Assembly: GCA_964502225.1 (NCBI GenBank)
Contig: CAZCUC010000006.1
Location: 1-55,220, forward strand
Reading direction: 5' to 3'
DNA from: an uncultured Pseudomonadales bacterium
GTDB lineage: Bacteria; Patescibacteriota; Microgenomatia; UBA1400; UBA12108
DNA: 55,220 nt
Positions 30,815-53,221 of this stretch are shown here, piece by piece. The translations under genes and the position numbers were made by a program. The notes under the pieces are model-generated. The model made no database searches. It was not told where the DNA came from and worked only from the letters and a program-made list of their open reading frames with translations. Every line of letters begins with the position of its first letter. Within the stretch, counting starts at the first letter, position 1.

Positions 30815-30820
30815 GATACC

Positions 30821-37584: not shown

Positions 37585-38367
37585 ATGATCCAAGAACTAG
37601 TTGGGAGAGTGGAACCAATTAACCACTTTGTTGATATTTTGGATAGAATTGAACGCCAGGGACCGGTAAGCTCTAATCTAATAGAGTATTATGGCTCACC
37701 AGGTATTGGCAAATCGACGTTGCTGGTAGAGTTGGCACGTAAGTCTGAGAAGAAAGGCGCAAGAGTGGCCATGATTAACTTTGAAAATGAAGATACTGGT
37801 GAGTTGGAGCGTGATCCAACCTTATTGATAGAAAAACTGGCAAACCAACTAGGAATCAATCGTGGTAACTTTGCAAAGGCCCTGGCCGTGTACCGTCAAT
37901 CATCTTTGCCGAGTGAGGGAGTGGTGGCGGCGTATGCCAACATGAATCAAGAAACTAGACTCTATCGACGTCCAGATTGGCTAAATAAGTTGCGAGAGAT
38001 GGATGTTGAGTTTATCAAAGCGGTGAATGAAAGTAAGTCACCTATGGTTCTGCTTTTTGATGAAGCGGATGAAACTAGTGTTGAGGTTTTAGATTTTGCG
38101 GAGGAGTGGATTATGAACCCGATTGCACAGGTCAAAACTGCCATTATTGGCTTTGCCGCTACCAGACCTTGGAGGTGGAAGAGGCCCGAGATCAGACGAA
38201 GACTGACAAGTACTCAGATCGGGACATTGAAAAAAGAAGAGGTGGGAGAATGGCTAAGACAAGAGTGGCCTAACTGGAAAGGTTCTTTAACATCAGCGAT
38301 TATCGGCGATATTTATCAAACAACTGGAGGACATCCTGGAGCAATCCAGGCTGTAATTGAATCATGA
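37585..38367 (+). CDS. P-loop NTPase (AAA/STAND-like)
   Basis: AAGGAG SD at 37574-37579. Walker A is YGSPGIGKSTLLVELARK and Walker B is VLLFDEADE. Start set at ATG 37585. Confidence 0.7.
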   Translation: MIQELVGRVEPINHFVDILDRIERQGPVSSNLIEYYGSPGIGKSTLLVELARKSEKKGARVAMINFENEDTGELERDPTLLIEKLANQLGINRGNFAKALAVYRQSSLPSEGVVAAYANMNQETRLYRRPDWLNKLREMDVEFIKAVNESKSPMVLLFDEADETSVEVLDFAEEWIMNPIAQVKTAIIGFAATRPWRWKRPEIRRRLTSTQIGTLKKEEVGEWLRQEWPNWKGSLTSAIIGDIYQTTGGHPGAIQAVIES

Positions 38368-38981
38368 CTAACAGACCAGAATTTGCTTCTACACAATTTG
38401 AATATCTCCTAAAAGGTGCTCTGAGTAAAGAAGGAACAGAGATACGTGAGGCAGCTGTGCCTCTAAGTTGTGTAAGATTATTTGACACAAATATGATGAG
38501 CAAAGTTTTGAAAGCCACCAAGCCAGGTATATATAAATCGTGGAATATAGCTGATTTTGGTGATCTACTCTACAAATTTAGAAATTCTGGACTGCTAGTT
38601 CGGGAGAAAGGATATGCAGTAGATTCTGCTGTACGTCATTTAGTTTCAGAGCACTTGAGATATAACGAACCCAAAATGTTCACAAAGGCTAATTTAGCCG
38701 CACTAGAAGTTTATCGAGAATGGCTAAGTAGGCCAGTTGATAGTAGAAGTCTATATGTAGTAGAGGAGTTGTTTCATGTCGCTAACCTAGATCCACAGGC
38801 AGATTTGACGGGACTACTGAAGGGGAGACTTGAAGAGTACCCAAGATGGTATCGTGATACGATTGAACACCAGATTCAAGTAGACAATTTAGGTCAGTTA
38901 CTGCGAGATGATATAGAACTAGAAAGTCTCACTAGTTCACTACCTGAGATGATGGAGTTGGTGAAAAAGTATAAACCATAA
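38364..38981 (+). CDS. Helical protein coupled to the P-loop NTPase (possible split STAND C-terminal module)
   Basis: ATGA start/stop overlap with the upstream gene. 205 aa, predicted helical. No motif recognised. Confidence 0.55.
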   Translation: MTNRPEFASTQFEYLLKGALSKEGTEIREAAVPLSCVRLFDTNMMSKVLKATKPGIYKSWNIADFGDLLYKFRNSGLLVREKGYAVDSAVRHLVSEHLRYNEPKMFTKANLAALEVYREWLSRPVDSRSLYVVEELFHVANLDPQADLTGLLKGRLEEYPRWYRDTIEHQIQVDNLGQLLRDDIELESLTSSLPEMMELVKKYKP

Positions 38982-39046
38982 ATTGCTGTTATTCCGATCT
39001 TCCTGTCAAATATACTGAATTTTAGGTATATTGTGAGCGCGTCTAC

Positions 39047-39074
39047 AAAAACCCCGCCTGGTGGCGGGGTTTTT
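39047..39074. terminator. Bidirectional intrinsic terminator
   Basis: Sequence aaaaa-ccccgcc-tggt-ggcgggg-ttttt, located between convergent genes (38364-38981 on the plus strand and rplL on the minus strand). Confidence 0.85.
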
Positions 39075-39115
39075 GAGTTTACGGACGGATGATAATCCGC
39101 CCCTACGGGTAACAA

Positions 39116-39142
39116 TTATTTCAATTCAACGGTTGCGCCGGC
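39116..39142 (-). pseudogene. Orphan duplicate of the last 8 codons plus stop of rplL
   Basis: The reverse complement gcc ggc gca acc gtt gaa ttg aaa taa encodes AGATVELK*. The peptide is identical to the true rplL end (39178-39204). All 4 nucleotide differences are synonymous. Confidence 0.6.
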
Positions 39143-39177
39143 CCTTCGACTTTGCTCAGGACCTACGCTAAGTTGAA

Positions 39178-39558
39178 TTATTTTAATTCAACTGTAGCTC
39201 CGGCTTCCTCGAGTTTCTTTTTCGCGGCTTCGGCGTCTTCTTTTTTGGCACCTTCAAGCACGGTCTTGGGAGCGGCTTCGACTAGATCCTTGGCTTCTTT
39301 GAGGCCGAGGGTCTGGTTGAGTTCGCGGACTGCTTTGATGACACCAATTTTGTTGGCACCACCAGCTTTGAGGACGACATCAAAGGCATCCTGAGCTTCG
39401 GCGGCAGGAGCGGCGGCGGCACCAGCGGCGGCAGGAGCGGCCATCATGGGAGCGGCGGCACTAACACCGAACTTTTCTTCGAGGGCTTTGACGAGTTCGG
39501 CCACTTCGAGGACGGATAATTTCTCGATTTGCTCTACTAGAGCGACTAGATCAGACAT
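39178..39558 (-). CDS. rplL: 50S ribosomal protein L7/L12
   Basis: [24 protein letters not shown], an Ala-rich hinge, then [24 protein letters not shown]...ATVELK. Confidence 0.96.
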
Positions 39559-39597
39559 ATTGTCTCCTTTTATATTTATTTATACAAATAATACTAA

Positions 39598-40134
39598 TTA
39601 AGCGGTTACAGCTTTCTTTTTGTTTACTGCAGATAGGGCGTAAACGAGGGATCTCATCGGAGCTACCAAGATACCGACCATGTTTCTAGCAGGGTTACTG
39701 AGTGTACCCAGGAGTTTGGCGATCAATTCTGCCTTGCTCGGGAGGGCGGCTAGTTGCATAACTTTTTCCATCGATAACACATCTTTGCCCAGTATACCGG
39801 CCTTTACTTTGGGTAGATTCTTGTCGTTGGCCTTGCCAAACTCGACTAAAGCTTTGAGAGGGGCGACCGCGTCGTTTTCGGCGAGCAGGGTGAGGTTGGG
39901 ACCGGTCAGCTCTTTGTCTAGACTACTCACGTCGTAACCTTTGCTGGTCATGGCGATTTTGAGGAGGCTGTTTTTGGCGACGGTGATCGTGCCACCGGCG
40001 GCTCTGACTTTGTCGCGCAGATCGACCTGCTCTTTGACGGTGAGGCCGGCATAGTCAGCGATAAAGATGGCTTCGACTTTGTCTAGTTTTTCGACTAGCT
40101 CGGCGACGGCCGCGATGTTTTGTTTGTTTGGCAT
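39598..40134 (-). CDS. rplJ: 50S ribosomal protein L10
   Basis: KQNIAAVAELVEKLDKVEAIFIADYAGLTVKEQVDLRDKVRAAGGTITVAKNSLLKIA. Start set at ATG 40134. Confidence 0.93.
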   Translation of the reverse strand: MPNKQNIAAVAELVEKLDKVEAIFIADYAGLTVKEQVDLRDKVRAAGGTITVAKNSLLKIAMTSKGYDVSSLDKELTGPNLTLLAENDAVAPLKALVEFGKANDKNLPKVKAGILGKDVLSMEKVMQLAALPSKAELIAKLLGTLSNPARNMVGILVAPMRSLVYALSAVNKKKAVTA

Positions 40135-40196
40135 ACTTCGATTCCTTTCAGTCACTCAGTACTTTCAGTACTATTTATAATATTTGCTTTTAGGCC

Positions 40197-40223
40197 AAAA
40201 AAAAGCTGTCCCCCGCGACAGCT
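40197..40223 (-). promoter_or_regulatory. Hairpin plus U-tract within the rplJ 5' leader (candidate L10-leader attenuator/terminator)
   Basis: On the minus strand, agctgtc-gcgggg-gacagct is followed by tttttttt. It lies about 60 nt upstream of the rplJ ATG and downstream of the candidate promoter. Confidence 0.5.
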
Positions 40224-40295
40224 AAATACTACATCTTGTAGTTTTTTGCCTTCGTCCCGACTTATGTATCGCGGGATGTCTAGAGGTATGGGGAT

Positions 40296-40324
40296 AGTAT
40301 AGCATGAAGATTAAAGTTACACAA
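40296..40324 (-). promoter_or_regulatory. Candidate rplJL promoter TTGTGT-17-TATACT
   Basis: On the minus strand, ttgtgt is at 40324-40319 and tatact at 40301-40296. This implies a leader of about 160 nt. Confidence 0.45.
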
Positions 40325-40374
40325 TATACATACTCATTGCATATTCTGATGAATAGTGATATATTCTTTGACCG

Positions 40375-40641
40375 ATGAAAAAGAGACTAACCCAAATTGA
40401 AATAGCGCTAGGATTATTAGTGTTTGCAACAATGGCATGCTCATACCAATCCACCAGAGAAGGTATACTCGTGACGACGGGTGAGTCTGCAGGTAAGACT
40501 TCAAGTGCAGAATTGGATTATCTAATACGTGATACTAACCGTTGTGATCTATTTACATATAATCTTTATGAAAATAATGCTTGGCGTCAAGAAAAAGCGG
40601 TTGTGTGCAACTACGATAGTTTGTTGAAATATAGAAAATAG
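40375..40641 (+). CDS. Small putative lipoprotein
   Basis: MKKRLTQIEIALGLLVFATMAC is a signal peptide with a lipobox-like Cys. TGaTATATT (40357-40365) lies 9 nt before the ATG. Confidence 0.55.
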   Translation: MKKRLTQIEIALGLLVFATMACSYQSTREGILVTTGESAGKTSSAELDYLIRDTNRCDLFTYNLYENNAWRQEKAVVCNYDSLLKYRK

Positions 40642-40668
40642 GTCACTTGGCGACACTTTTTTGTCATA

Positions 40669-41481
40669 TTAAATGTTTGGATAAATCATCGGGAGAAAGA
40701 GGTAATCAATTATAGACTCTAGCCGGTGAGATACCTCTGTTGCATGAGGATTGCTGGCAAATTTGATCTGGGGATTAACGTGAGCATGAGACAATACTTT
40801 GTATCTATACACCGATGACTCATCTTTAATTAAGTTGATTTTGACTAAAGAAAAGACTCCGTCTGTATGGACTACCACAATTATTGGAGTCTCGACGTTA
40901 CTTGTCTCAAAAACATCAAGATGAAAATTTGGTCGATTTTTTTGAATAATTGTGGTTATTTGAGATAGTTTCTCACGGATTGATTCGAGAGTAACTGACT
41001 CGTTTGACACCAGGCTAGATTCTGGTCTGGAGTAGCCAACTCCAGATATAGAGAGTGAAGAATCTTGAATTGTAAGGCGTGGCTTGAGCTTGGTTGGCAG
41101 TGATAAATGCTCGAGAGTAAATAATGCGGCTTTGATCTTTCCAGGAGTATTTGAGTCAGGGGTAATTCTTACTCCGTAGCGATTCTGCTCGTCGTTTGTA
41201 AATATAAGCGAAAAACTCTGGCTTTTGCCAGGAAAGTTAGTGAGATTAAGAGAAAATGAGCTGGCACTAGAGCTGGTAATATTGGCAGATGGGAGAATGG
41301 GGATAAATTTCTCGTCTTTATTGCGAGGTGCATAATGCAGAGCTAAAGCTAGATTAGCGAGTGATTCCAGATGTGAATAGGGTAGAGATAGTGATGTCTC
41401 TGTTTCTCTGAGGCCAGATTCCTTTCCTGGAGATAGACTCTTGAGGATCTCAAGGTAGCTGGTGAGCTCAGTGAGTTTCAT
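40669..41481 (-). CDS. Hypothetical protein (island)
   Basis: 270-aa ORF and the last gene of the four-gene minus-strand string 43236->40669. No motif recognised. Confidence 0.55.
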   Translation of the reverse strand: MKLTELTSYLEILKSLSPGKESGLRETETSLSLPYSHLESLANLALALHYAPRNKDEKFIPILPSANITSSSASSFSLNLTNFPGKSQSFSLIFTNDEQNRYGVRITPDSNTPGKIKAALFTLEHLSLPTKLKPRLTIQDSSLSISGVGYSRPESSLVSNESVTLESIREKLSQITTIIQKNRPNFHLDVFETSNVETPIIVVVHTDGVFSLVKINLIKDESSVYRYKVLSHAHVNPQIKFASNPHATEVSHRLESIIDYLFLPMIYPNI

Positions 41482-41485
41482 GAGG

Positions 41486-41974
41486 TTATCTGCGACGACT
41501 CATGTTTGTGCCGACGTAACCAGTCTTCATATCATTATCTTTCATCCAGCTATGCATTTTCCCGTAGGCCTCTCCAGCTTGGTAGGCTAAAACCGGGAAT
41601 ATTGAGATTGCAGCTAGTCCAATGACTCCCATCAAGACACCAATTCCAGTTTCTCCGGCATCACGTGAATGGCTGAGAACCTCGACGGCTTTATTCAAAA
41701 AAACTACACCACCAATAGCAGGGGCAAGAGTCCCGACGACTTTGTTAAAAATTTCGGCACCCTTGAGGAGCCAGCGGGGAGTTTCGTGGACTGAGTATCC
41801 GATGGTACCTAGCCCACCTAGGATAGCAGGGCGGTCTTTTATAGATCCATCATGAACGCCAGTTCGATGAGCTTCAGCAATGTCTTCTGGAGATCTGCCT
41901 GCAGCGAGAAAATTCCACTGATTGAGATGTGCTGATCTCCAATTACCCTCTGGATTACTATTACGTATTTTCAT
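41486..41974 (-). CDS. Gly-rich membrane protein (island)
   Basis: 162 aa. Hydrophobic Gly/Ala-rich helices GTLAPAIGGVVFL and GIGVLMGVIGLAAISIFPVLAY. Confidence 0.55.
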   Translation of the reverse strand: MKIRNSNPEGNWRSAHLNQWNFLAAGRSPEDIAEAHRTGVHDGSIKDRPAILGGLGTIGYSVHETPRWLLKGAEIFNKVVGTLAPAIGGVVFLNKAVEVLSHSRDAGETGIGVLMGVIGLAAISIFPVLAYQAGEAYGKMHSWMKDNDMKTGYVGTNMSRRR

Positions 41975-42025
41975 GATCTTAGTTTAGATCACTATAGGCT
42001 ACAAGTCAAGTAATCTATTCGCTGC

Positions 42026-42325
42026 TTATTGAGCAGGGGTTTCTGCAGGAGCAGCTGCTTCTTCGGCAGGGGTTTCAGCATCAACTTGTTCGCCTACCTG
42101 TTGTTTCAAATCCAAACCTTCGAGTGTGGCTTTGGCTGAAAGATATTTGTTCATATCAGCGAGCTTGTCGATTACGATTCCTAGTGCTTCTACATTTCCT
42201 GCGGTAGGATCGTCTTGAACAGTTTTTGCCATTTCGACTATTTGATTTTTGATATCCTCATGCAGCTCTTCATCAGCCATAACATCACTGATTAGATCAT
42301 TTATTGTGTCATTTAGATCGGTCAT
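42026..42325 (-). CDS. Small acidic helical protein (island)
   Basis: 99 aa, Asp/Glu-rich and predicted all-helical, with a low-complexity tail AETPAEEAAAPAETPAQ. Confidence 0.5.
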   Translation of the reverse strand: MTDLNDTINDLISDVMADEELHEDIKNQIVEMAKTVQDDPTAGNVEALGIVIDKLADMNKYLSAKATLEGLDLKQQVGEQVDAETPAEEAAAPAETPAQ

Positions 42326-42363
42326 ATTTCTCCTTTTTTAATAATTCTTTTTATATTAATGAC

Positions 42364-43236
42364 TTATTTTGCGATACCTTTTGCCATTTTTTCACTTGCT
42401 GCTCGAGTTACTGCCTGAATGGCTTTTTTATTCTTCAGAGCTTGTGCTTCTTTTGTGGCTTTTGCTGCATCTTTGCTGTTGTAGCTCTTTTTCTTAAGTC
42501 TTTCGAGCTCTTTTTTAGCTGCGGCAAGTTCTTTGCTGGATGTCTTAAACTTGTTGTTCATTTCTTTGAGGTTTTGTGCTCTAAGCTTTAGTGCTTCTCT
42601 TGTATCTTCGACTCGAATTCCTCTTTCTTTGTTAGCATACTCTAGTAGACCAGAGGCTCTTTTTGCGTACTTTTCAGCTTTGGTTGCTAGTCTCGTAGCT
42701 CTCCAGTCGAATACGGCCTCAGTTACTTTGTTCCAGCCTTCTTTAACTTTCTCCCATGGTCGAACTAAACCAGCGAGTCGCTCTCCAATTCTTTGATATG
42801 TCCCGGTACCAGGATTGATAGCATCAACATTTGCTGCAACTCCTTTGTGGATTTCCCGCGCTCCGTCTCTTCCACCTTTTGCCTTTACTATGGCTAATTC
42901 GCTTGCTACTCGCCCCATAACAACTTTATTGAAAGAAACGGCTTTGTCACCATCAACCGTTGATCTATGGTCGTACCATTTTTGCATAGAATCCAGAATC
43001 CAGGAACCCAGATTCAAAACTCCTTCTCCTGCACCAGTCGCTTTGAGTTCTCGCTGCGCATGTCTTACTTCAAAACTACTACCTGCGCTTTCAACTTTTT
43101 TCTCTCCAAGATTTCTCACAACTTCTTTGGTTATTCCAATCGCAGCTCCAAAAGGGGTATTTTGTTCTGCGGCTACATTTAATGCTTCGGCTCTTTGGTC
43201 TGCATATTTTTTAGCGTCAAATCCATTTTCTGCCAT
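42364..43236 (-). CDS. Helical, Lys/Ala-rich coiled-coil protein (island)
   Basis: 290 aa, with a C-terminal coiled-coil (KELAAAKKELERLKKK...). Candidate promoter TTGACA(43301-43296)-17-CATACT. Confidence 0.55.
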   Translation of the reverse strand: MAENGFDAKKYADQRAEALNVAAEQNTPFGAAIGITKEVVRNLGEKKVESAGSSFEVRHAQRELKATGAGEGVLNLGSWILDSMQKWYDHRSTVDGDKAVSFNKVVMGRVASELAIVKAKGGRDGAREIHKGVAANVDAINPGTGTYQRIGERLAGLVRPWEKVKEGWNKVTEAVFDWRATRLATKAEKYAKRASGLLEYANKERGIRVEDTREALKLRAQNLKEMNNKFKTSSKELAAAKKELERLKKKSYNSKDAAKATKEAQALKNKKAIQAVTRAASEKMAKGIAK

Positions 43237-43374
43237 AGGTTTTTTCCTTTTATATAATCTTTAATCTATTTAAGTATGTAATTAATTTTGACAAGTGTCA
43301 AGGGCTCTACAAACCATTGCTTTGGATACAATAAATGCGATACTATTAAGGTTAGTTAGTAATTAAAAAATTAT

Positions 43375-44805
43375 ATGCACGAGAATCGATCTGGTCTAAA
43401 TATTTCGAAAATGGTAGATAGTACCAGCCTCGAGCTTATGGCAGCGAGAGAAATCGGAAAAATCAGTTTTGGGAAACATATTGAATCAACAGCTCTCGCA
43501 TTACAGACTAGAACTGATGGGTGGTTAGGGAGTAATTTCGCTACCTCATGGTCTGTCTTTGGTGAAAGAGATGGAAAACACCCAGAGATAGCTGAGAGTA
43601 GAAAAATGGATTTTTTAACAGACTGTGCACCTGAGGCGGCTGAAATTTTTCAACTAATGAAAGGGGAAGATTGGTTTCAAAAACTTGACTCTGATGAACT
43701 GGCTCACTTCAAGGATATCGCAGAACATGGGTATAGGAAAAATATTTTAGGATCTTTGATAGCCAAGGACCTTGGAGTGGAAAAACAAACAAAAGTAACA
43801 ATTCCTGCGGACTCAGCAAAGAGACTAGGGCTTGTACACAAAGCCATGTCTTATGACGCTGAGCGTCGAAATGTGGAGGATAGATTGCATCTCTTAACGC
43901 AGTTTATAGGTGAAAAGGGAATTGAGGGTGAGACAGTCCAGATTAGATCATTCAAAACCAATGAAATGGTCAGGAGAGCCGAGCAAATAATTGAGCGATC
44001 ACATGCTCGTAGAACAGCCGCGAGAGAATTGTTTGAACTGCCAGGGGAGCTTAAACAATCTGAGCAAGATCGCTCAAGAAACGTCGAACTCAACAAAATT
44101 TTCCCGAGCTTGATTGATAGCGCCTCTATGATAAGTGAAAAATCGAACCGTAGTCTGATGGCAAGGTTGGGAGTCACGCGTGATGATCGAGGTTCGTACG
44201 TCGTGACCATGGATCAAAAGCCGAACGACGGCAAGCACGCGATGCGGATGGTGCTTGATCAGAGAATCCGTAATAATCAAGTAAAGGAAGTAAATAACAA
44301 TATCGAGGAAGTTATTAAAGCCGGAAGATTAAAAGAGGATATTTTACAAGATGGTGCTGATTTACTCGTACTTAGAGCGATAGAAACTGATAGTGCGACA
44401 GACTGTGGAAGATTCTTCCAGGAAGAAGTGAGAAGAACAATTCTGAGGGAGAAAATGCATGAGTTAGTCTTAATTGGAGAGCATGATCCCCCCTCTTATC
44501 AAGATGAAACTGATAGAGAAGTTATGATAGGGGCTGGGAGGGCACTACAAGAAATGTACTTTATGGCGGAAGGGGTGCTCCGGACTATGGCCAGGATGGT
44601 TGATTCCGCCTTCACTATCAACTTTAAACCAGGTGGATTCATGCATAGAATCACTGGTTCATTGTCTGGCAAGATGAGAGGAATTGCTGACAATTTACTT
44701 GACTCCAACTTATCTGTACCAAAGATAGTCCCGCCAGGACGTGACCCTAGTCGATGGGGAGATAAACTGGCGATGCCTGACTTTTTTGCAGAATACGATC
44801 AATAG
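43375..44805 (+). CDS. Island family E protein, copy 1 (476 aa), function unknown
   Basis: Paralogous to 48471-49847. Shared blocks are DGKHAMRMVLDQRIRN / DGERAMHMVVNQRIRN, DCGRFFQEEVRR / DCGRVFQERVRR, and C-terminal MPDFFAEYDQ / MPDLFAEFEG. Confidence 0.65.
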   Translation: MHENRSGLNISKMVDSTSLELMAAREIGKISFGKHIESTALALQTRTDGWLGSNFATSWSVFGERDGKHPEIAESRKMDFLTDCAPEAAEIFQLMKGEDWFQKLDSDELAHFKDIAEHGYRKNILGSLIAKDLGVEKQTKVTIPADSAKRLGLVHKAMSYDAERRNVEDRLHLLTQFIGEKGIEGETVQIRSFKTNEMVRRAEQIIERSHARRTAARELFELPGELKQSEQDRSRNVELNKIFPSLIDSASMISEKSNRSLMARLGVTRDDRGSYVVTMDQKPNDGKHAMRMVLDQRIRNNQVKEVNNNIEEVIKAGRLKEDILQDGADLLVLRAIETDSATDCGRFFQEEVRRTILREKMHELVLIGEHDPPSYQDETDREVMIGAGRALQEMYFMAEGVLRTMARMVDSAFTINFKPGGFMHRITGSLSGKMRGIADNLLDSNLSVPKIVPPGRDPSRWGDKLAMPDFFAEYDQ

Positions 44806-44830
44806 TATAAGTATATAAGGGAGCAATATC

Positions 44831-44989
44831 ATGACCACAAAAAATGATGACAATATCCAAGAAGAACTTTTGGAGGCAAATCTTTTGTCTTCAAAAATAA
44901 AAACTGAACTCGCTCAGTCGAAAGCTCAAAACGACTATCTAGAGAAAATTGTAAAAAAGATGGAACAAGTAGTACTAGGAGGGAGATAA
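44831..44989 (+). CDS. 52-aa coiled-coil micro-protein, copy 1 (not in the ORF track)
   Basis: AAGGGAG SD 8 nt upstream. Translation MTTKNDDNIQEELLEANLLSSKIKTELAQSKAQNDYLEKIVKKMEQVVLGGR. It shares K(A/K)QNDYLE with 49850-50014. Its stop lies 1 nt before the next ATG. Confidence 0.6.
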   Translation: MTTKNDDNIQEELLEANLLSSKIKTELAQSKAQNDYLEKIVKKMEQVVLGGR

Positions 44990-44990
44990 T

Positions 44991-46463
44991 ATGGCAAATC
45001 ATCCAACGGCAGAATTCAATTACCCACTAGAGGACTATTCCTCCGATCTCATTGATAAAAGTCTGGGTCCAATTTTGTCCGACAAAGATGTGGTAAAGGG
45101 TTTCCAGCTGGGTAAAGCGAATGTAGATACTCGGAGCAAAGATAATATTATTAAGGCCGATTATCTCCGAGACTTAAAAAGTGCGGTTGAATCAGGTAAA
45201 TTAAGGGAAAAAACTCTCGAAAATGGGATTGTTGCAGACATTAGAGAAAAATGTATTGAGCTAAATCTGATTCTCGTGAAAGAGTACGGGTATGATTGGA
45301 ATGTACGCGCGCCAGAGACAGTGCTCATGAAGGCGTGGGAACTTGCTGAGGCAGTAAAACGTAGAGAAGTTCATGGTTATGATGTGAATCAAGAGCTTCG
45401 ACCGTACCTAGAGAAGCCACAATTTAATAAGGATGGCGGAGAAAGGATATATTTTCCAGAAGATAAAAACGAGAGAAGAAAATTATTGGGGAAAGCCAAA
45501 TATTATAATGAGGCGAGAATTGACGCTAGATCTAGAATGCTTGATATAGCAGATCTTGTAATAGATGATCGGGACTATGCTAATGGTTCGTATGATGCTG
45601 AATTACTTAGAATCCCACTTGCTGAAGCTTGGACTAGAGAGGATAAAGAAAGAGTAGACAATTGTGTGTATGAATTAGATTACTACGAACAAAGATTGAA
45701 GCTTAGCGAAGTAAATTCTCGAATCGAAAGAGGTGACGTTCCTGAGTTGGCCACTATCGCCGAGAAAATCCGAAGTATAGCCTATGTATCTGATGAAGAT
45801 GAATTGTTGCATGGGGTGGGGATAGGAGTTAATGGTAAGCAAGAGTATCAACTCAATTGGCCAGGTGGTGATGGCGGAGCTAATTTGCTTATTAAAGGTC
45901 GGATGGGACAATCTGAATTGATGCAAATTTGTCAGAGATGTGCAGAGGACATCCCTACTGGATCAGAGAAGAATGCTGATATTATGCTCATGAATGCGAT
46001 AGGCATGCAAGAATTGTCTGCCATGGAGGTAGCAGGTAAATCAATCATCGAGGGGGAGATCTATCGACAACGAGGAATTGAGTTAAATGAATCTATAACA
46101 GAAGATCGGGAGCGTTTTGATCAACATCTAAATAGAGTCAAAAGTGAGCCAGGAATGACAAAGGATCAGCTCGCTCAGTATATATATGAGGCAGCGCGTC
46201 AAATAAATGATGTGTTGTATAAAATTTCTGCATCGATGACTAATGCGATTAGGTTTGTAGCAATAGATAATGGTGGTAAATATCGGGGAGTAGCGGAGAA
46301 AGTATCGAGTTGGATAGATCGATTGTCGAGTTGGGGAGCTCCCAAGATGGACAAGTATTTAGCAAAAAAAACAAATATTGAACCAAGAAACTTGAGTGAG
46401 TCTGATGCGTCGCTCCAGAGAGGTCGGGTTAGTTTCAATTTACCTAGCATCGAGGAGGTTTAA
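44991..46463 (+). CDS. Island 490-aa protein, possibly a divergent family E member
   Basis: GGAGGGAG SD upstream. The GVGIGVNGKQEYQLNWPGGDGGANLLIKGRMG block resembles LGVGRDEDGHWSFNSIIPGTDGERAMHMVVNQRI in the E copies. The similarity is weak and judged by eye. Confidence 0.6.
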   Translation: MANHPTAEFNYPLEDYSSDLIDKSLGPILSDKDVVKGFQLGKANVDTRSKDNIIKADYLRDLKSAVESGKLREKTLENGIVADIREKCIELNLILVKEYGYDWNVRAPETVLMKAWELAEAVKRREVHGYDVNQELRPYLEKPQFNKDGGERIYFPEDKNERRKLLGKAKYYNEARIDARSRMLDIADLVIDDRDYANGSYDAELLRIPLAEAWTREDKERVDNCVYELDYYEQRLKLSEVNSRIERGDVPELATIAEKIRSIAYVSDEDELLHGVGIGVNGKQEYQLNWPGGDGGANLLIKGRMGQSELMQICQRCAEDIPTGSEKNADIMLMNAIGMQELSAMEVAGKSIIEGEIYRQRGIELNESITEDRERFDQHLNRVKSEPGMTKDQLAQYIYEAARQINDVLYKISASMTNAIRFVAIDNGGKYRGVAEKVSSWIDRLSSWGAPKMDKYLAKKTNIEPRNLSESDASLQRGRVSFNLPSIEEV

Positions 46464-46466
46464 TTT

Positions 46467-46640
46467 ATGAATAAAATTACGAATGATGACGTAGTAAGCA
46501 CGGATCAAATAATTGGAGGAATGGATAGTGCACTAAATACTCTCGAAGAAATGGAGAGAATGATTGAGCTGAAGAAAAAGAACAACGCAACTCTTGCCAA
46601 GATGGTCGATGAGTTGAGTGATGAAGATAGTGACAGATAA
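46467..46640 (+). CDS. 57-aa coiled-coil micro-protein, copy 2 (not in the ORF track)
   Basis: GAGGAGG SD within the end of the upstream gene. Translation MNKITNDDVVSTDQIIGGMDSALNTLEEMERMIELKKKNNATLAKMVDELSDEDSDR. Confidence 0.55.
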   Translation: MNKITNDDVVSTDQIIGGMDSALNTLEEMERMIELKKKNNATLAKMVDELSDEDSDR

Positions 46641-46672
46641 TGGTATGACTTAATAAGTTTGGTATCAACTTA

Positions 46673-47299
46673 TCATGCCAGTAGACGAGGGATGTGAGTG
46701 GAAACTGAGTTTAATCTGCCTTGTTTATTGAGAGCCAAGACGGCAAGAAGCCGACGGGCGTAAAAAGAAGTTCCGTCGAAGATGGTGTTTTCGTCCGTTT
46801 CGAGAAAGCCGTGGATGATTTGAGGTTTCGATATCATGGGATTTCGATGAATCTGGTATGGCTCCTTGATCAAGTAGATACCAGGGCTGTAATGGAGATG
46901 GGGAGTATTTAGACTAAGATTTTTTGGTATAACGATGCCTTTTGCGTGTGAGTACACATAAGAGTATCCAGGCGAGTATTCGGCGTCTACACCTTGCCCG
47001 CTTAGTGCAAAATGGCTATATGAGTCTGATTGATTCAAGATAAAAAGTTCACTTGTTGCATGTTCCACAAGAGATCTGGCATTGTCTTTGCTCAGGTCAC
47101 CCCACCAAATTTTGACTCCAAATTCGTTATATATTGAACTATTTGGGCTCGTGACAAGCTCGGAAGATGATCGTACTTGCTGACCATCGCGAAACCCTAA
47201 AGCCTGTAGACTTTCCCAAGTGTCTGCTGATGCTTGCGATGTAACTGGTGGATAGTCTGGCGCGAATTTTTTCCGTAAATAGTCAAATGATCTTCTCAT
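46673..47299 (-). CDS. Hypothetical protein (island)
   Basis: 208-aa ORF on the opposite strand, between the two plus-strand modules. Confidence 0.5.
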   Translation of the reverse strand: MRRSFDYLRKKFAPDYPPVTSQASADTWESLQALGFRDGQQVRSSSELVTSPNSSIYNEFGVKIWWGDLSKDNARSLVEHATSELFILNQSDSYSHFALSGQGVDAEYSPGYSYVYSHAKGIVIPKNLSLNTPHLHYSPGIYLIKEPYQIHRNPMISKPQIIHGFLETDENTIFDGTSFYARRLLAVLALNKQGRLNSVSTHIPRLLA

Positions 47300-47360
47300 G
47301 TTTTTATCTTAACATCTAGGCATGGGTAGGTGCGACTACTTTTAATGATATATTATTGGT

Positions 47361-48449
47361 ATGCCTGAGAGTAAAGCAAATAATTTTCTTTTTGCACCAC
47401 TAGAAAAATCTTTGGAGAATGTTGTAGAAAAAAAGCCGTCAAAATTTGAGAATTCCATGGTTCGAATCGAAACAGCGCTAAAAAAGCTACTTAAGTTGAG
47501 AGATAGCGATTTTATAGAGCGGAAAAGGAAGCGGGAGGAAGTGGAAGGCAAGGTAGATTTGGATAAGAGCCTAGTCAACAAACTTGAGATTCCCTCAGCA
47601 GCAGTTGAATTACCTACAAAGATAACTACTGACGCGAGAGAGGATTTTAAGAAAACTTTCCCAAAGTGGGCGGCTGAAATTGAGCGAACTCCAGTGAAAT
47701 ATATGGTCGGGTATAACAAACTCACAGATGACGATAAGAAAAACTTTTTTGAATTGCTAACAGAAAAAGGGACACTAATGGGAGAAGCGTATCCATTTTA
47801 CGAACTACTAACTCAAAAGTTATCCGAAAAGGCCGCATCATCACACAAGGGGGCTTGGGGGAAAATATTTGGATTTATGGCCAAGGCAACTGGATGGATG
47901 TCATATAGGTTGGATATGCCAGTAGCAAGAGAGTGGAATAACGTAGAATCTCATCTGACGGCTGTGTATGGCAAAGAAAGAACGACCGAGTTGATCGAAG
48001 ACTTATATTTTGGTGATAAGGATGAATACCAGGGATTTTTACAGGCATGTGAGATGGCCAAGCTTGATTTTGTGGGAATGTCAGAGAGAGCTAAGACGCA
48101 CTCATGGTATACCAACACGCTGTACAAAAGAATTATCGAAAATCCAAAAATCCTCAACAATCCGCTGGTAGTTGGAGGATTAAACTTACCTGGGAAAATA
48201 CATGACGTCTCGACCCTAATGATTACCGCTACCACTCTAGGAGTAGGTTCAGCTATTGCAACTGCTGGAGCGCTTATCAACACTGCTCCCCTAGATTATC
48301 TTATGACCAACCTGGCACTAGGAGGACTTGCTGGTATTGCAGCAGTAGGTATAGGTATGGGAGGGATTGGTATTATGTTTCACGAATTGACGCATATATA
48401 CGGGGGCAATTTTCGGAGGAAGTTGCGGGAAATAGGTGAGAAAAAGTAA
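47361..48449 (+). CDS. Island protein with a helical N-terminal half and a Gly-rich C-terminal membrane domain
   Basis: TGaTATATT (47346-47354) lies 6 nt before the ATG. C-terminus TLGVGSAIATAGALINTAP...LALGGLAGIAAVGIGMGGIGIMFHELTH. Confidence 0.6.
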   Translation: MPESKANNFLFAPLEKSLENVVEKKPSKFENSMVRIETALKKLLKLRDSDFIERKRKREEVEGKVDLDKSLVNKLEIPSAAVELPTKITTDAREDFKKTFPKWAAEIERTPVKYMVGYNKLTDDDKKNFFELLTEKGTLMGEAYPFYELLTQKLSEKAASSHKGAWGKIFGFMAKATGWMSYRLDMPVAREWNNVESHLTAVYGKERTTELIEDLYFGDKDEYQGFLQACEMAKLDFVGMSERAKTHSWYTNTLYKRIIENPKILNNPLVVGGLNLPGKIHDVSTLMITATTLGVGSAIATAGALINTAPLDYLMTNLALGGLAGIAAVGIGMGGIGIMFHELTHIYGGNFRRKLREIGEKK

Positions 48450-48470
48450 TAATTGCGGTATTATGTAACT

Positions 48471-49847
48471 ATGGCAGAGAAAGGTAGAGAGTTACTTAGT
48501 CAAGGGAAGTCTAGTGAACTGAGTTTTCGGTTGGCGACAGAGGGTGTACAAGTAAACAAGAAAGTTGCGAGAAGTGAGATAGACAGGGTTGGTGAGTTAA
48601 GCTCTGGTATGGATATAGCTTTCCAAAATTTGTGGGAAGACAAGTTTAATACGGCTTACGGTGCCTTTAACGCTACGGCAGATATTCTCAAAGAAAAGGA
48701 AGATTTACGTGGTTTTGTTGATCAAGTAGCTCCAGAAGCAGTATCAATGATGGTGACAGCCTACGGAAAGGAATGGTGGAAAGGTATAGATGCTGAGGAT
48801 CTCATCTTTGTCCAAGACATTGCTGAGAGCAATTATCGCCGCGATAAATTAGCAGAAAATATCACGGATCAGTTAGATTGGAAAGAAGATGGTATCCCTA
48901 CCTTGAAGTCGGGACATGTGGACAAGCTAAGATTGCTTCATACTGTGCTCGCATATGATGATGCTGGATCGGATAGTCGGATGGTCTTACGCTACTTTGC
49001 TGAACGAATGAAGTATAAAAATACTGCCAGCAATCCTCATGTTGCACTGGATAAAATGGGCGTGGCCACAGATCGGGTCAGGAAAATGTTTGAGTGGGAA
49101 GGCGAGGCAACTAGTGAGGAGGGGATGAACCAAGAATTGGCTTCAATATTTGGCGACGTTCTAAATAATGCTAATATGTTAGATGATCAGGGACGAGCGC
49201 AAGTTGCAAGTAAACTGGGAGTAGGACGTGACGAAGATGGGCACTGGTCATTCAACAGCATTATTCCCGGTACGGATGGTGAGCGGGCAATGCATATGGT
49301 TGTAAATCAAAGAATACGCAATAAAGGAATAAGAGAGAATAACCAAAAACTTAGAGAGGTTTTGAAGAAGGATGGCCCCGAAAAGGTAGAGCTGATGAAG
49401 TATGGTATGGACGAGCTTGTACTCGACTTATTTACTCAGGAAACGGCATTGGACTGCGGAAGGGTTTTCCAGGAGAGAGTGCGTAGAGTGATCATTGACG
49501 AACGGATTAAAGAAATACGATCTTTGGATGAACGGCGATCTCTACATACCGTAGCGAGTGAAAGAATATTCCAGACTATCACCAAGGTAGGGGCGGAGAT
49601 AGCCTATTTTGTGCAAGATATTACAAAAATGATGGCAGAGGCAGGTAATAGCTTGCTGGATCGGGTAAGTAAGGGGGGATTTTTGGAAAAGGTGATTGGG
49701 ACAGCAAGCAGGGGATGGCAGAATGTTTCTGAGGTTGCAAAAGATATGACGGATGATATCCCGAGTGATTTTCCTGATTTGAGGCGTCGTAGACAACGGA
49801 GGGGACCACTGGATATGCCAGATTTATTTGCAGAGTTTGAGGGCTAG
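48471..49847 (+). CDS. Island family E protein, copy 2 (458 aa), function unknown
   Basis: Paralogue of 43375-44805 (see the shared blocks listed there). Start set at ATG 48471; the track uses TTG 48453. Confidence 0.65.
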   Translation: MAEKGRELLSQGKSSELSFRLATEGVQVNKKVARSEIDRVGELSSGMDIAFQNLWEDKFNTAYGAFNATADILKEKEDLRGFVDQVAPEAVSMMVTAYGKEWWKGIDAEDLIFVQDIAESNYRRDKLAENITDQLDWKEDGIPTLKSGHVDKLRLLHTVLAYDDAGSDSRMVLRYFAERMKYKNTASNPHVALDKMGVATDRVRKMFEWEGEATSEEGMNQELASIFGDVLNNANMLDDQGRAQVASKLGVGRDEDGHWSFNSIIPGTDGERAMHMVVNQRIRNKGIRENNQKLREVLKKDGPEKVELMKYGMDELVLDLFTQETALDCGRVFQERVRRVIIDERIKEIRSLDERRSLHTVASERIFQTITKVGAEIAYFVQDITKMMAEAGNSLLDRVSKGGFLEKVIGTASRGWQNVSEVAKDMTDDIPSDFPDLRRRRQRRGPLDMPDLFAEFEG

Positions 49848-49849
49848 AT

Positions 49850-50014
49850 ATGGTTAAAATTAAAGTAGATCCAAAGAATACGCGCTCATTGCTAGTTGAG
49901 GCGTTAGGAGTCAACGAGCAGGTGAAGGAAGAGTTAAGACAACTAAAGAAGCAAAACGATTACTTGGAGAGCTTGCTGGGTACTGCTGAGGAAAATTTGC
50001 TGAAAGATAGGTAA
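49850..50014 (+). CDS. 54-aa coiled-coil micro-protein, copy 3 (not in the ORF track)
   Basis: The ATG lies 2 nt after the upstream stop. Translation MVKIKVDPKNTRSLLVEALGVNEQVKEELRQLKKQNDYLESLLGTAEENLLKDR. Confidence 0.6.
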   Translation: MVKIKVDPKNTRSLLVEALGVNEQVKEELRQLKKQNDYLESLLGTAEENLLKDR

Positions 50015-50116
50015 AATTAATAATTATCGTAATTTAATGTTCTAAATAACTTTGCTTGTATGATTTTGAAAGCCTTGGGGAGTGTGAGACTCCCAAGTAG
50101 TTGGTCTACCTACTGT

Positions 50117-50815
50117 TTACAACGATTGGCCTGAGAGATCTTTAAGAAACCAGCGTGCCTCTGACAATGGTGCCGCGCCTACATTGCCTCCATCAGGACC
50201 CATCATCATGTGGGTAATATCTGTTTCATGCACTAGGAATGCATTGAGCGAACGGGTATCTGCAAGTCGCCCAAGGAAAATATTACATAAGGAAAGTTGC
50301 TTTTCTTGAGGCAAGGCATCTACGTTGGTAAATATTACGGTTTGAAATTTGACGCTTTCTCTCTGCTTCATTTGAGCTAGAGTTGCTCTAGCTTCAACAA
50401 TATTCAGTGGATCTTTGCGATTTGGCGGTTTTATGCTATAGAGCGTAGCGAAATCATTGATTACTTTATCTACAACTGCGACAATCCAAGGATATTTGTC
50501 ATCATCAGTTTTTGTCAGGTCTTTACAGTTGATGATAATCAAAGCCGGCGATATGTCTCGGTTGATATCACCAGAAATTAGATCGTTTAATCGAGCTCTA
50601 GCGGTTGAGAAGCTTTTGACTTTAGGAGGGTGTTGTTCGCGTAGCATGGTTGCATAGGCGGCAGCGACTCGGGCAGATTCTGTTGCTGACTTCGATTCCA
50701 TTTTGAGACTGTAGTTACGGCCGTCATAGAGAAACATTCTCATGGCATCTGCCTCTACTCCTCTTAGTTGTTCTGCTGCTAGTTCTGCTGGGTGAATTTC
50801 TTTTTTGGTTGTCAT
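50117..50815 (-). CDS. Hypothetical protein (island edge, directly downstream of rplA)
   Basis: 232-aa ORF. A TATAAT box (50828-50823, minus strand) lies 7 nt before the ATG at 50815. Confidence 0.55.
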   Translation of the reverse strand: MTTKKEIHPAELAAEQLRGVEADAMRMFLYDGRNYSLKMESKSATESARVAAAYATMLREQHPPKVKSFSTARARLNDLISGDINRDISPALIIINCKDLTKTDDDKYPWIVAVVDKVINDFATLYSIKPPNRKDPLNIVEARATLAQMKQRESVKFQTVIFTNVDALPQEKQLSLCNIFLGRLADTRSLNAFLVHETDITHMMMGPDGGNVGAAPLSEARWFLKDLSGQSL

Positions 50816-50841
50816 GCCAGGTTATTATATACTCTTGAGGT

Positions 50842-51774
50842 TTAGCTTAGTTGTAGCTTAATACCTGGTGACATCGTGCTGGCCAGCGTGGCCTTGGTGA
50901 CGTTTTTGAGTTTGACGGCCTCAAGGAGAGCCTTGATATTGGCGACCAATTCTTCTTCTTTTTGGTCGATCTTGCCCACAGTCACGTGCATGAGAGGGAA
51001 TTTGGCTTCGGCTTTGACGACAGTTTTGCCTGCCTCAAATTCTTTGGCTTTTTTCTCTGGATCGGGGGTGACAGTGCCAGCCTTGGGCGATGGCATGAGA
51101 CCTTTGGGACCGAGGACTTTGGCGTACTTGGCTAGCTTGGGCATGAAAGCGGGGGAGGTGACCAAGATGTCGAACTCGATTTTGCCTTTCTCAATATCTT
51201 TGAGGAGCTCATCGGAGACGATGGCGACACGTTTGGCGGCTCCGGCCATGTGAGGGAAAGTGAGCTCGACCCGAGTAGGTGTATCTTTGGTCACTAGATT
51301 CAAGTGGAGGGTGACGGTCGAGGTAAACTTGGTGATGTTGCCTGATTTGACTAGTTTGACCGCTTCGGTGATCTCGTATTTCTTTTGTGGATCGACTTTG
51401 GATTTGGCGGCGCGGATAGCCTTGCCATTTTTGAAATCGTGGCGCTTGTTGGCTGGGCGGGGACCGACGGCTTCGATAGCCTCGTCGCCTGAGTGATCGT
51501 GGGACTCAACTGTTTCAGTGGAGGTTGATTCTAAAACTGGAGCAGTTAAATCGGGGGAATATTTGGCTCTGATTTCCTCGAGACCATTTTCGGTGATGCC
51601 CTGGATGGCAGTGATGTCGCCGTCGGTCATGTTGGTGAGTTGCTCTGGTTTGACGCGAGCGAGACGCAAGGCTTCGGCCACGTTTGGAGCGAGGTCAGTG
51701 TAGAGCTCTTCCCATTTGGTCATGGATTTTTGTTTCTTGGGGGCAACGGAGGTGCTATCTTTTCTTTTTCCCAT
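50842..51774 (-). CDS. rplA: 50S ribosomal protein L1 with an N-terminal extension of about 100 aa
   Basis: The L1 core runs from about KSKVDPQKKYEITEAVKLVK...PKGLMPSPKAGTVT...VGKIDQKEEELVANI. It is preceded by a Lys-rich tail and an HhH-like segment, LTNMTDGDITAIQGITENGLEEIRAKY. Confidence 0.9.
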   Translation of the reverse strand: MGKRKDSTSVAPKKQKSMTKWEELYTDLAPNVAEALRLARVKPEQLTNMTDGDITAIQGITENGLEEIRAKYSPDLTAPVLESTSTETVESHDHSGDEAIEAVGPRPANKRHDFKNGKAIRAAKSKVDPQKKYEITEAVKLVKSGNITKFTSTVTLHLNLVTKDTPTRVELTFPHMAGAAKRVAIVSDELLKDIEKGKIEFDILVTSPAFMPKLAKYAKVLGPKGLMPSPKAGTVTPDPEKKAKEFEAGKTVVKAEAKFPLMHVTVGKIDQKEEELVANIKALLEAVKLKNVTKATLASTMSPGIKLQLS

Positions 51775-51833: not shown

Positions 51834-52262
51834 TTACTTTTCAATTTCGACACCCATAGAGCGGGCGGTACCAGCGACCGAGCGCATAGCGGACTCGATA
51901 GAAGTGGTGTTTAAATCAGGTAACTTGTCGGTGGCGATCTTTTTGAGCTGGGCCTGGGTAAGCTTGCCTACCTTGGTTTTGTTTGGTACGCCTGAGCCGA
52001 GCTTGAGCTTGAGCTCTTGCTTGATCATCTCAGAAACGGGAGGGAGTTTGATGACAAAGGTGAAAGTGCGGTCCTCGTAGATCGTGATCTCAGCAGGAGT
52101 TTTTTGACCTTTTTTATCCTGGGTAGCTTTGTTATATTGGTTGACAAACTCCATGATGTTGACACCATGCTGACCAAGAGCTGGACCGATTGGAGGGGCA
52201 GGAGTGGCGGCCCCGCCCATAGGGAAGACTTTGATGACTGTTTTGATTTTTTTCTTGGCCAT
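51834..52262 (-). CDS. rplK: 50S ribosomal protein L11
   Basis: [29 protein letters not shown], plus the C-terminal [15 protein letters not shown]. Confidence 0.96.
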
Positions 52263-52338: not shown

Positions 52339-52986
52339 TTAAATTTTGCTAACTTGGGCGAAATCGAGCTCCACTGGAGTCTCGCGGCCAAAGATAGAGA
52401 CGAGTACTGAGAGCTTGCCTTTGGTTTCGTCGATGTGATCGACTGTACCCAGGAAGTCGGCAAATGGTCCCTCGACGATCTTGACGGCTTCGCCGGCAGT
52501 AAAGGTACTCTTGTACTTGGGAGCCTTGACTTCCATAAACTTCATGATGGTATCGACTTCGCGCTGGGGGATCGGGGTGGGGCGTTTGCCGACCGAGCCG
52601 ATGAAGGCGGTGACACCCTGAGTGGTGCGGACAGCGAGCCATGACTGGTCATCGACGATCATTTTGATGAGGATGTAGCCGGGGAGAATTTTTTCTTTGA
52701 CGGTTTTCTTTTGACCTTTTTTAACCTGGATTTTGTCTTGAGCGGGGATTACGACCTCAAAAATCTTGCCTTCGACGTTCATGCTGGCAATACGGACTTT
52801 GAGTTGTTCGGCGACTTTGAGCTCATGGCCACTATAAGTGTGGACGACATACCACTTGGCTTTGGCCTCGAGACCTTCGTTTTTTTCGTAGATCACGTGG
52901 TAAGGGTTGTTTTCCTTGACTTCGGATAAGATATCGCCGTCTTTGGCTTCTTCGAGTCGTTCAGTAAGATTTTTGTCATCAGTCAT
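52339..52986 (-). CDS. nusG: Transcription termination/antitermination factor NusG
   Basis: KWYVVHTYSGHELKV (NGN domain), PGYILIKM, and the C-terminal KOW GEAVKIVEGPFADFLGTV. Confidence 0.93.
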   Translation of the reverse strand: MTDDKNLTERLEEAKDGDILSEVKENNPYHVIYEKNEGLEAKAKWYVVHTYSGHELKVAEQLKVRIASMNVEGKIFEVVIPAQDKIQVKKGQKKTVKEKILPGYILIKMIVDDQSWLAVRTTQGVTAFIGSVGKRPTPIPQREVDTIMKFMEVKAPKYKSTFTAGEAVKIVEGPFADFLGTVDHIDETKGKLSVLVSIFGRETPVELDFAQVSKI

Positions 52987-53041: not shown

Positions 53042-53221
53042 TTATTTTAAGAATGTGCCAAGGAGCGAGGTGAAGACAAAGTCGAGACCACCGACATAGA
53101 GACCGACAACGAGGGAGGCGCCAAGGATAATGAGAGTCAAGTTGGTGGCTTCTAGGCGTGTAGGCCAGGTGACTTTGCCAAGCTCGACCCGGACTTCTTG
53201 TAGATAGGTTAAAATGTTCAT
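53042..53221 (-). CDS. secE: Preprotein translocase subunit SecE (59 aa; not in the ORF track)
   Basis: Translation MNILTYLQEVRVELGKVTWPTRLEATNLTLIILGASLVVGLYVGGLDFVFTSLLGTFLK. This has the classic VxxELxKVxWP motif plus one TM segment, in the canonical position upstream of nusG. Confidence 0.88.
   Translation of the reverse strand: MNILTYLQEVRVELGKVTWPTRLEATNLTLIILGASLVVGLYVGGLDFVFTSLLGTFLK

Follow-up and report, generated by a model that had tools for sequence, protein, structure and literature searches.

The junction between rplA and rplJ in a Woesebacteria clade is a chromosomal hotspot for alternative cassettes of orphan genes

Bacterial chromosomes contain hotspots without mobile elements, at which recombination takes place in the flanking core genes (Oliveira et al. 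2017, PMC5635113), and replacement islands that are exchanged by homologous recombination (Lopez-Perez et al. 2014, PMC4033161). We examined a stretch of 55,220 nucleotides (nt) from an uncultured bacterium of the candidate phyla radiation (CPR; contig CAZCUC010000006.1, hereafter the window), in which 10.5 kb with 14 plausible open reading frames (ORFs) separate the ribosomal protein genes rplA and rplJ. We show that the junction between the rplA stop codon and the rplJ promoter is a chromosomal hotspot in a Woesebacteria (CPR) clade, and that the insert in the window is one allele of a flexible genomic island of the replacement type. Such an allele of a polymorphic, clade-level hotspot is a known kind of genome feature; the gene module that recurs in it is undescribed. 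The reading that we favour as likely is that of a flexible island exchanged by homologous recombination and encoding an undescribed, probably membrane-associated protein assembly.

The locus shares with flexible islands and with hotspots free of mobile genetic elements a fixed position between core genes (15 or more loci) at which related genomes hold differing or unrelated genes or an empty site. As in flexible islands, its history is decoupled from that of the flanks, identity breaks off sharply at the edge (position 40310), its GC content at third codon positions (GC3) is lowered, and the window has no integrase or attachment (att) site; the only exception is a Y1 transposase in the homologue of one island gene, g270, in the related locus L027. 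Unlike those islands, it lies inside the secE-nusG-rplKAJL cluster of an ultra-small CPR genome, it carries only orphan genes instead of glycosyltransferase or O-antigen-type surface genes, and one cassette type persists over deep divergence (68% rplA identity). Exposed structures are a typical, not an obligatory, cargo of flexible islands; here the candidate membrane proteins or lipoproteins are g162, g362 and g88. For a split at this operon boundary Mycobacterium tuberculosis offers a precedent: there rplK-rplA is followed first by the mmaA genes, lipG, fabD2 and others and only after these by rplJ-rplL, so that about ten unrelated genes part rplA and rplJ and rplJL keeps its own promoter. 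Those genes are metabolic genes of known function and fixed in place, whereas the genes here are orphans, polymorphic and replaced between close relatives.

Pfam identified all six genes of the secE-nusG-rplK-rplA and rplJ-rplL units, which are intact on the minus strand, as a preliminary description made from the sequence alone had stated. That description had listed 13 ORFs on mixed strands between them, three of them micro-ORFs. Both strands are indeed used and the micro-ORFs are there, but the count is 14: 11 genes of 88-490 amino acids (aa) and three micro-ORFs (52, 57 and 54 aa). The features of the locus are as follows.

53042-53221, minus strand: SecE (Pfam)
52339-52986, minus strand: NusG (Pfam)
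51834-52262, minus strand: rplK (L11; Pfam)
50842-51774, minus strand: rplA (L1, 310 aa), upstream anchor of the hotspot (Pfam Ribosomal_L1, E 2e-26)
50117-50815, minus strand: g232, window-specific orphan in the rplA-side slot, without family match and a singleton at 90% clustering
49850-50014, plus strand: g54, micro-protein partner of g464 and paralogue of g52 (40% identity, E 3e-6)
48453-49847, plus strand: g464, all-alpha paralogue of g476 (BLASTP, 27% identity, E 2e-43)
47361-48449, plus strand: g362, orphan whose C-terminus contains, by hydropathy, a hydrophobic, glycine-rich (membrane) segment; orthologue in L027
46673-47299, minus strand: g208, window-specific orphan in a variable slot that holds an unrelated 469-aa gene in L027
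46467-46640, plus strand: g57, micro-protein partner of g490, beginning 3 nt past the g490 stop
44991-46463, plus strand: g490, third and distant paralogue of the g476 family (hhalign)
44831-44989, plus strand: g52, micro-protein partner of g476, a single predicted amphipathic helix with the motif QNDYLE
43375-44805, plus strand: g476, acidic all-alpha protein, founder of a very small family (alignment A1; AlphaFold2 (AF2) model)
43237-43374, no strand: divergent intergenic region between the core operons, with the island's best promoter-like matches
42364-43236, minus strand: g290, very basic (net charge +21), Lys-rich and helical, first gene of the minus-strand core operon
42026-42325, minus strand: g99, small, helical and very acidic (net charge -17)
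41486-41974, minus strand: g162, small, with two hydrophobic segments (hydropathy) and a charged C-terminus
40669-41481, minus strand: g270, alpha/beta orphan, final gene of the core operon
40375-40641, plus strand: g88, window-specific putative lipoprotein in the rplJ-side slot (N-terminal hydrophobic segment followed by Cys)
40135-40310, minus strand: rplJ promoter (-10 TATACT) with a leader of three hairpins, which anchors the hotspot on its downstream side
39598-40134 (or to 40155), minus strand: rplJ (L10; Pfam)
39178-39558, minus strand: rplL (L7/L12; Pfam)
39178-40134, minus strand: the rplJ-rplL unit as a whole

The g232 ORF shares the strand of rplA and starts 26 nt past the rplA stop, and only 3 nt separate the g362 stop from the g464 ORF, whose true start is probably the ATG at 48471. 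For rplJ, position 40134 (ATGCCAAAC) is the start that all relatives keep.

We compared the junction with nine Woesebacteria/Microgenomates loci recovered by a scan for L10 and with further loci found by homologue look-up. It occurred in three states, namely empty, filled with unrelated orphan cassettes, or filled with homologous cassettes, and every insert (15 or more loci) falls in the interval from the rplA stop to the rplJ -35/-10 elements. Four genomes (L006-L009) are empty: their rplA ends about 20 nt before the rplJ -10, the rplJ -35 falls within the last rplA codons, and rplKAJL is contiguous, with rplA followed by the rplJ promoter and leader, an order absent from the window. The island thus splits an adjacency that is usual in bacteria and kept in these relatives, as had been proposed. 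At least three genomes (L003/L005 and L004) hold unrelated cassettes, which hhalign did not connect with the families of the window. In L004 the insert is a single 362-aa membrane protein. The L003/L005 cassette has four genes on a single strand (109/114, 464/489, 89 and 1008/1103 aa) without relation to any library searched, and it occupies the following positions.

L003 4559-9634 and L005 3899-9399: alternative orphan cassette at the rplA/rplJ junction

Scans of the relatives' alternative cassettes with the Pfam, NCBIfam, PHROGs and PADLOC libraries recognised only a kinase and a HepT/MNT pair.

Homologous cassettes were found in at least seven related genomes, with rplA identities of 68-88%. 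The order in L028 is rplA, a Ser/Thr kinase, g57, g490, g52 and g476, followed by g290, g99, g162 and onwards. The genome of SRR25168019, for which we treated L021, L022 and L026 as one genome (same sample, abutting contigs), has the L028-type order and, in addition, g464'/g54' and a gene of 307 aa. In L027, the complete contig to which L001 belongs, the cassette comprises g464', g362', a new 469-aa gene, g57', g490', g52' and g476', then extra genes, g290', g99', g162' and a g270' that is interrupted by an IS200-type transposase. All eight core families are present in L020 (rplA 72% and rplJ 68% identical), partial views of the cassette adjoin rplA in L016 and L017, and L024 keeps an eroded version with a C-terminal remnant of g162, g270 and two lipoproteins. 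The recurrent core consists of two divergent operons with eight orphan families, g290-g99-g162-g270 on the minus strand and the pairs g476-g52 and g490-g57 on the plus strand, to which g464-g54 is added in some genomes. In trees of rplJ+rplL and of rplA, genomes with the cassette, with an empty junction and with another cassette are intermingled.

The preliminary description had regarded the island as the window's strongest candidate for a self-contained undescribed system. The island is not a unique insertion, given the homologous cassettes at the same junction in at least seven related genomes; it does contain a recurrent undescribed multi-gene module, but it is a mosaic and not one self-contained unit. 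The mosaic combines the conserved core (g57 to g270), an extra g362-g464-g54 module shared only with L027, and window-specific cargo (g232, g208 and g88), with variable slots on the rplA side, on the rplJ side and inside the cassette (g208). The description had also named an ancestral arrangement, with the same genes at the same place and native composition in all relatives, as the case that would speak against it; this case applies in part, with homologous genes at the junction in at least seven relatives and a near-native composition, although four genomes are empty.

Conservation differed among the families. The most conserved island protein is g162 (84-89% in close relatives, 45% in L020), and g270 is the most widely retained core member. 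Orthologues of g57 were found in L021 (90%), L028 (89%), L027 (63%) and L020 (46%), and those of g52 in L022 and L028 (98%), L027 (69%), and L016 and L020 (56-58%). Orthologues of g490 are present in L028, L022, L027 and L020, and those of g290 in L022, L028 and L027. The g464 orthologues are 52% (L021, followed by a g54 homologue) and 64% (L027) identical, and the g362 orthologue (74%) lies upstream of g464' in L027. The slot of g232 is filled by the Ser/Thr kinase in L021 and L028 and by a 426-aa orphan in L020, and the slot of g88 adjoining rplJ holds other lipoprotein-like genes in relatives. The slot kinase is a stand-alone protein of 344-345 aa (L021 1924-2958, minus strand; L028 186-1223, plus strand; 86% mutual identity), and its best PADLOC match is the defence kinase PD-T4-6 (E 1.5e-27).

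The island genes are real and under purifying selection, including the micro-ORFs. In orthologue comparisons the ratio of nonsynonymous to synonymous substitution rates (dN/dS) was 0.017-0.20 for island genes and 0.02-0.17 for flanking genes (g52, 0.017-0.045; g57, 0.10; g162, 0.07; g290, 0.13). Their history is decoupled from that of the flanks, to judge from identities and synonymous divergences (dS) that are mismatched in both directions. L027 is the nearest relative by its flanks (rplJ-rplL with leader 94% and a MerR-family gene 97% nucleotide identity, dS 0.25), and its island is more distant: g99-g162-g270 are 77-80% and g362-g464 69% identical at the nucleotide level, and g476, g490 and g290 cannot be aligned as nucleotides and share 35-41% amino-acid identity. 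The 94% block starts exactly at 40310, the rplJ -10. The opposite holds for SRR25168019, with flanks of 76-80% (dS 1.3-1.6) and a stretch from g290 to g57 of 82-87% (dS 0.5-0.7; g290 to g490 82%, g57 87%).

These data bear on the alternative that the cluster is ancestral and specific to the lineage, was passed on vertically and lost several times without being exchanged, and possibly has a link with translation or the ribosomal stalk. Such a history would fit the constant locus between two ribosomal stalk protein genes, the clade-wide occurrence down to 68% rplA identity, the purifying selection, the near-native tetranucleotide composition and a probable co-transcription of g232 with rplKA. 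The four genomes without the cassette and others with unrelated genes show, however, that it is dispensable. The island and flank divergences disagree both ways, GC3 is significantly lower than elsewhere in the window and differs widely from that of the ribosomal genes, and L027 holds an rplA remnant that marks its cassette as inserted. We therefore consider purely vertical descent improbable.

Two relatives carry footprints of DNA entry. In L027 a pseudogenised copy of the rplA 3' end (292 nt, 89% identical to the rplA of the window) ends at the stop codon and lies at the distal end of the cassette, before an older resident gene pair, which indicates that the cassette was inserted there. In L003 a HepT/MNT toxin-antitoxin pair follows rplK and is bracketed by a 63-nt direct repeat, of which 62 of 63 positions are identical, so that this insertion is recent. 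The features concerned are the following.

L027 10855-12124 (L001 7081-8349): IS200/IS605-type Y1 transposase within the g270 homologue, with the rplA remnant directly after it
L003 1590-2383: HepT/MNT insert; its repeat is the rplK 3' end including the stop codon

Both duplications are thus copies of the end of the upstream gene (63-292 nt) without an integrase. We infer that the cassettes were gained, swapped and lost via homologous recombination and not by an integrase. The highly conserved ribosomal genes would serve as recombination anchors, and the duplicated 3' ends could have arisen by single-crossover integration of a DNA circle carrying part of the gene or, alternatively, by homology-facilitated illegitimate recombination.

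It is extremely unlikely, and already largely refuted, that the island is a decayed prophage, an integrative element or a chimeric assembly. The mixed-strand orphans, the lower GC3, very weak Pfam hints at phage minor-tail proteins (E 0.036) and the transposase inside the L027 version would point that way. Against this, PHROGs gave no significant island match, the only one below E 0.01 being that of g99 to an unannotated family (E 0.0083). No integrase or transposase was found in the window with Pfam, NCBIfam, PHROGs or PADLOC, a search for flanking direct repeats or att sites in the window returned short repeats at chance level only, no tRNA gene adjoins the island, and Pfam, NCBIfam and PHROGs matched no recombinase or phage hallmark gene. 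The occurrence of the gene set on phages or plasmids, which the preliminary description had suggested checking, was not borne out either: tblastn and scans of phage, viral-contig and plasmid collections found no island relatives. As for a chimera, the cassette and both junction types are reproduced in independent assemblies from other samples.

The GC content of the island is 0.41-0.43, compared with about 0.51 in the ribosomal genes and 0.46 in the remaining window, and its median GC3 is 0.385 vs 0.473 in the rest of the window (Mann-Whitney p=0.004). The impression of an AT-rich island is therefore correct relative to the ribosomal genes, but the difference is modest, and GC and tetranucleotide distance fall within the window's own range. 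A low GC3 with the other two measures in range is the signature of accessory genes and not of recent foreign import. The promoter-like elements that had been ascribed to the island genes number 30, no more than chance would give in shuffled sequence (23.8+/-6).

The rplJ promoter and leader at the island edge, in contrast, are well supported. They are conserved in 10 loci whether the island is present or absent, and the leader, which ends in a terminator-like hairpin (40204-40223), has compensatory changes in 9 of 19 pairs. This conservation makes rplJL an autonomous transcription unit, and the rplA/rplJ junction tolerates insertions because it is an operon boundary. The Rfam model L10_leader did not match the leader at the gathering threshold or at E<=10. 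The three-hairpin leader, which is conserved in the window and in the homologous regions of L001-L007 and L020, could represent a form of the L10 autoregulatory leader that is specific to CPR.

No island protein was matched by Pfam, NCBIfam or PADLOC at E<0.01 (PADLOC-DB 2.0, 0 matches for 10 island proteins), and a PDB sequence search with the A1 profile, g232, g208 and g362 found nothing; apart from the borderline PHROGs match of g99, the ORFs belong to no family in these libraries, in line with the earlier remark that none of them shows a recognisable housekeeping motif. In particular, g362 had no family, PDB or phage match, and g232 had no family match and is unrelated to the kinase that fills the same slot in relatives. 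A Pfam scan of each of 10 members of the g476 family gave no recurring weak family, and these members and g99 had no match to WXG100, LXG, PE or PPE. An exhaustive HMMER search with the g476 family in 1.84 billion cluster representatives returned 13 matches, 2 of them spurious (Ig-repeat giants) and 11 true; further scans found one locus in metagenome contigs and none in viral contigs. Nothing specific was found in the literature when rplA/rplJ was searched together with CPR, or in searches for islands of Woesebacteria.

The island contains three units, each with a large all-alpha protein of about 470 aa and a micro-protein of about 55 aa encoded directly downstream. The internal paralogy proposed earlier holds for g476/g464 and g52/g54, and it extends to g490, a distant third paralogue (hhalign probability 95.9%, E 6e-9, 365 columns, with a slightly enriched alignment). 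The spacing inside the pairs is 1-25 nt, and in every checkable case a micro-ORF of the matching type follows the large paralogue, the g52/g54 type after g476/g464-type genes and the g57 type after g490-type genes. In most pairs the identity of the micro-protein exceeds that of its large partner (98 vs 92%, 69 vs 38%, 56 vs 28%), which argues for a partner or adaptor and against an immunity protein. In the g476 family the C-terminal tail MPDxFAE and two motifs further inside the protein are conserved. The AF2 model of g476 from a 4-sequence alignment is all-helical with one small central beta-hairpin, at a low-confidence predicted local distance difference test (pLDDT) score of 58, and that of g270 from 5 sequences is unusable (pLDDT 41). 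Foldseek gave no match at E<0.01 for the g476 model against PDB and BFVD; matches to IpaD, ClyA and tape-measure-like proteins were rejected as generic long-helix, non-significant similarities. Among the other proteins, g162 and g362 have hydrophobic segments, g88 has a lipobox-like N-terminus, and the very basic g290 adjoins the very acidic g99.

The three large all-alpha paralogues (about 470 aa) have a beta-hairpin in the middle and are each tightly linked to a small ORF; at a polymorphic locus, they could be read as leaderless polymorphic toxins with micro-protein antidotes or as a tripartite alpha-helical pore-forming set of the ClyA/Hbl/Mak type, the more so as ClyA, MakA/B, PaxB and Cry6Aa are among the weak Foldseek matches. 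We give this explanation little credence. Those matches are non-significant (E 0.6-1.1, template modelling score 0.09-0.16) and come from a low-confidence model, and neither Foldseek for g476 nor hydropathy for g476, g490 and g464 revealed the elongated bundle with hydrophobic head or beta-tongue of the ClyA superfamily. The large proteins lack a hydrophobic segment that could serve as head or tongue, Pfam gave no toxin, WXG100 or LXG match, and the better conservation of the micro-proteins is the reverse of usual toxin-immunity pairs.

Type VII secretion systems export helical substrates with small helical partners, such as PE/PPE, EspB and LXG-Lap. The island resembles them, in a manner of working only, in its set of leaderless helical paralogues of 400-500 aa, each with an adjacent small helical partner, and in the conserved short C-terminal motif. 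It differs in having no homology to WXG100, LXG, PE or PPE and no EssC-type ATPase in the cassette, and its partners are about 55 aa and single-helix-like, whereas type VII partners are hairpins of about 100 aa.

Defence islands and defence hotspots (PMC10121019) are a further comparison, and an undescribed defence against phages or mobile elements, with the helical paralogues as sensors and g162/g362 as membrane-disrupting effectors in a hotspot resembling a defence island, is an unlikely alternative that does have several points in its favour. Like defence hotspots, the junction is variable and flanked by core genes, and relatives hold the PD-T4-6-like kinase (rplA-side slot of L021/L028) and the HepT/MNT pair (L003) in the same or adjacent slots; an AAA_16 ATPase lies in the window's rplL-side slot, and the patchy distribution, the deeply diverged alleles and their replacement at one fixed hotspot fit as well. 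The kinase match, however, rests on the generic kinase domain. No island protein was matched by PADLOC or has a nuclease, ATPase or other enzymatic domain, and, unlike most defence systems, the families occur in one clade at one locus, with 11 representatives among the 1.84 billion.

We return to the flexible island that would encode a membrane-associated assembly. Tight gene spacing and strict pairing suggest a stoichiometric, multi-subunit assembly at the membrane, and we tentatively propose that it might serve in interaction with another organism. Each large helical paralogue would be bound by its own micro-protein as a partner or chaperone, g162 and g362 would be small membrane proteins that anchor or export the large proteins, and the product would act on a host cell, a competitor or a phage. 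An interaction of this kind would explain the allelic diversification and the replacement. It is doubtful, though conceivable, that the core is an undescribed Woesebacteria-specific multi-protein system whose polymorphism is maintained by an arms race against hosts or phages. Under one option g162/g362 would form a holin-like or glycine-zipper membrane gate for the release or display of leaderless helical effectors, and the micro-proteins would act as adaptors; under another the core would be a new membrane-acting anti-phage system.

Several points count against the exchanged island and its assembly. By hydropathy g476, g490 and g464 have no signal peptide or hydrophobic segment, which makes exposure or export of the large proteins conjectural, and the cassette contains no secretion ATPase or other machinery. 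The pLDDT values of g476 and g270 are too low for fold assignment, and the Foldseek results are non-significant. The restriction of the families to one narrow clade and one locus would fit vertical inheritance with repeated loss equally well, and the window itself has no recombination footprint. Finally, the incongruence between island and flanks is partly weakened if L021, L022 and L026 come from different genomes; the L027 comparison is independent of this.

Further junctions vary among the relatives, namely secE/nusG, rplK/rplA and rplL/MerR-family gene. In the window rplL is not followed by rpoBC, and about 5 kb (34200-39170) extend to the MerR-family gene (33813-34157), with the AAA_16 ATPase (37555-38367), a protein with an OmpR-type Trans_reg_C domain (36388-37515), and two orphans of 205 and 460 aa. 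The closest relative, L027, lacks this stretch and has rplL and the MerR-family gene 376 nt apart, so that the stretch is a second variable slot. The rplA product has a clade-specific N-terminal extension of about 115 aa before the L1 domain, with a helix-hairpin-helix-like stretch by eye; it is conserved along its whole length in all Woesebacteria loci but missing from the L1 proteins of Chloroflexota, which align from residue 115 only. A single giant ORF of 5252 aa occupies 15092-30850 (minus strand), and L024 and L026 likewise have a giant gene at the equivalent position, downstream of a Dus gene (>2100 to >3500 aa, no Pfam match on record). Almost all 1-kb bins of the window have a positive GC skew, whatever the gene orientation; the near-monotonic rise of the cumulative skew places the window probably within one replichore.

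The locus carries a caution, in that an operon split by orphan genes need not mean a newly acquired foreign system. It also delimits a compact module that is strongly constrained yet polymorphic and that includes three verified micro-proteins. The genomes of CPR bacteria are very small, and a large part of the biology specific to their lineages is hidden in orphan genes. With two independent footprints of DNA entry (L027 and L003), the junction locates a site of orphan-gene turnover at the boundaries between the most conserved genes, those of the ribosomal operons, which would act as the recombination anchors.

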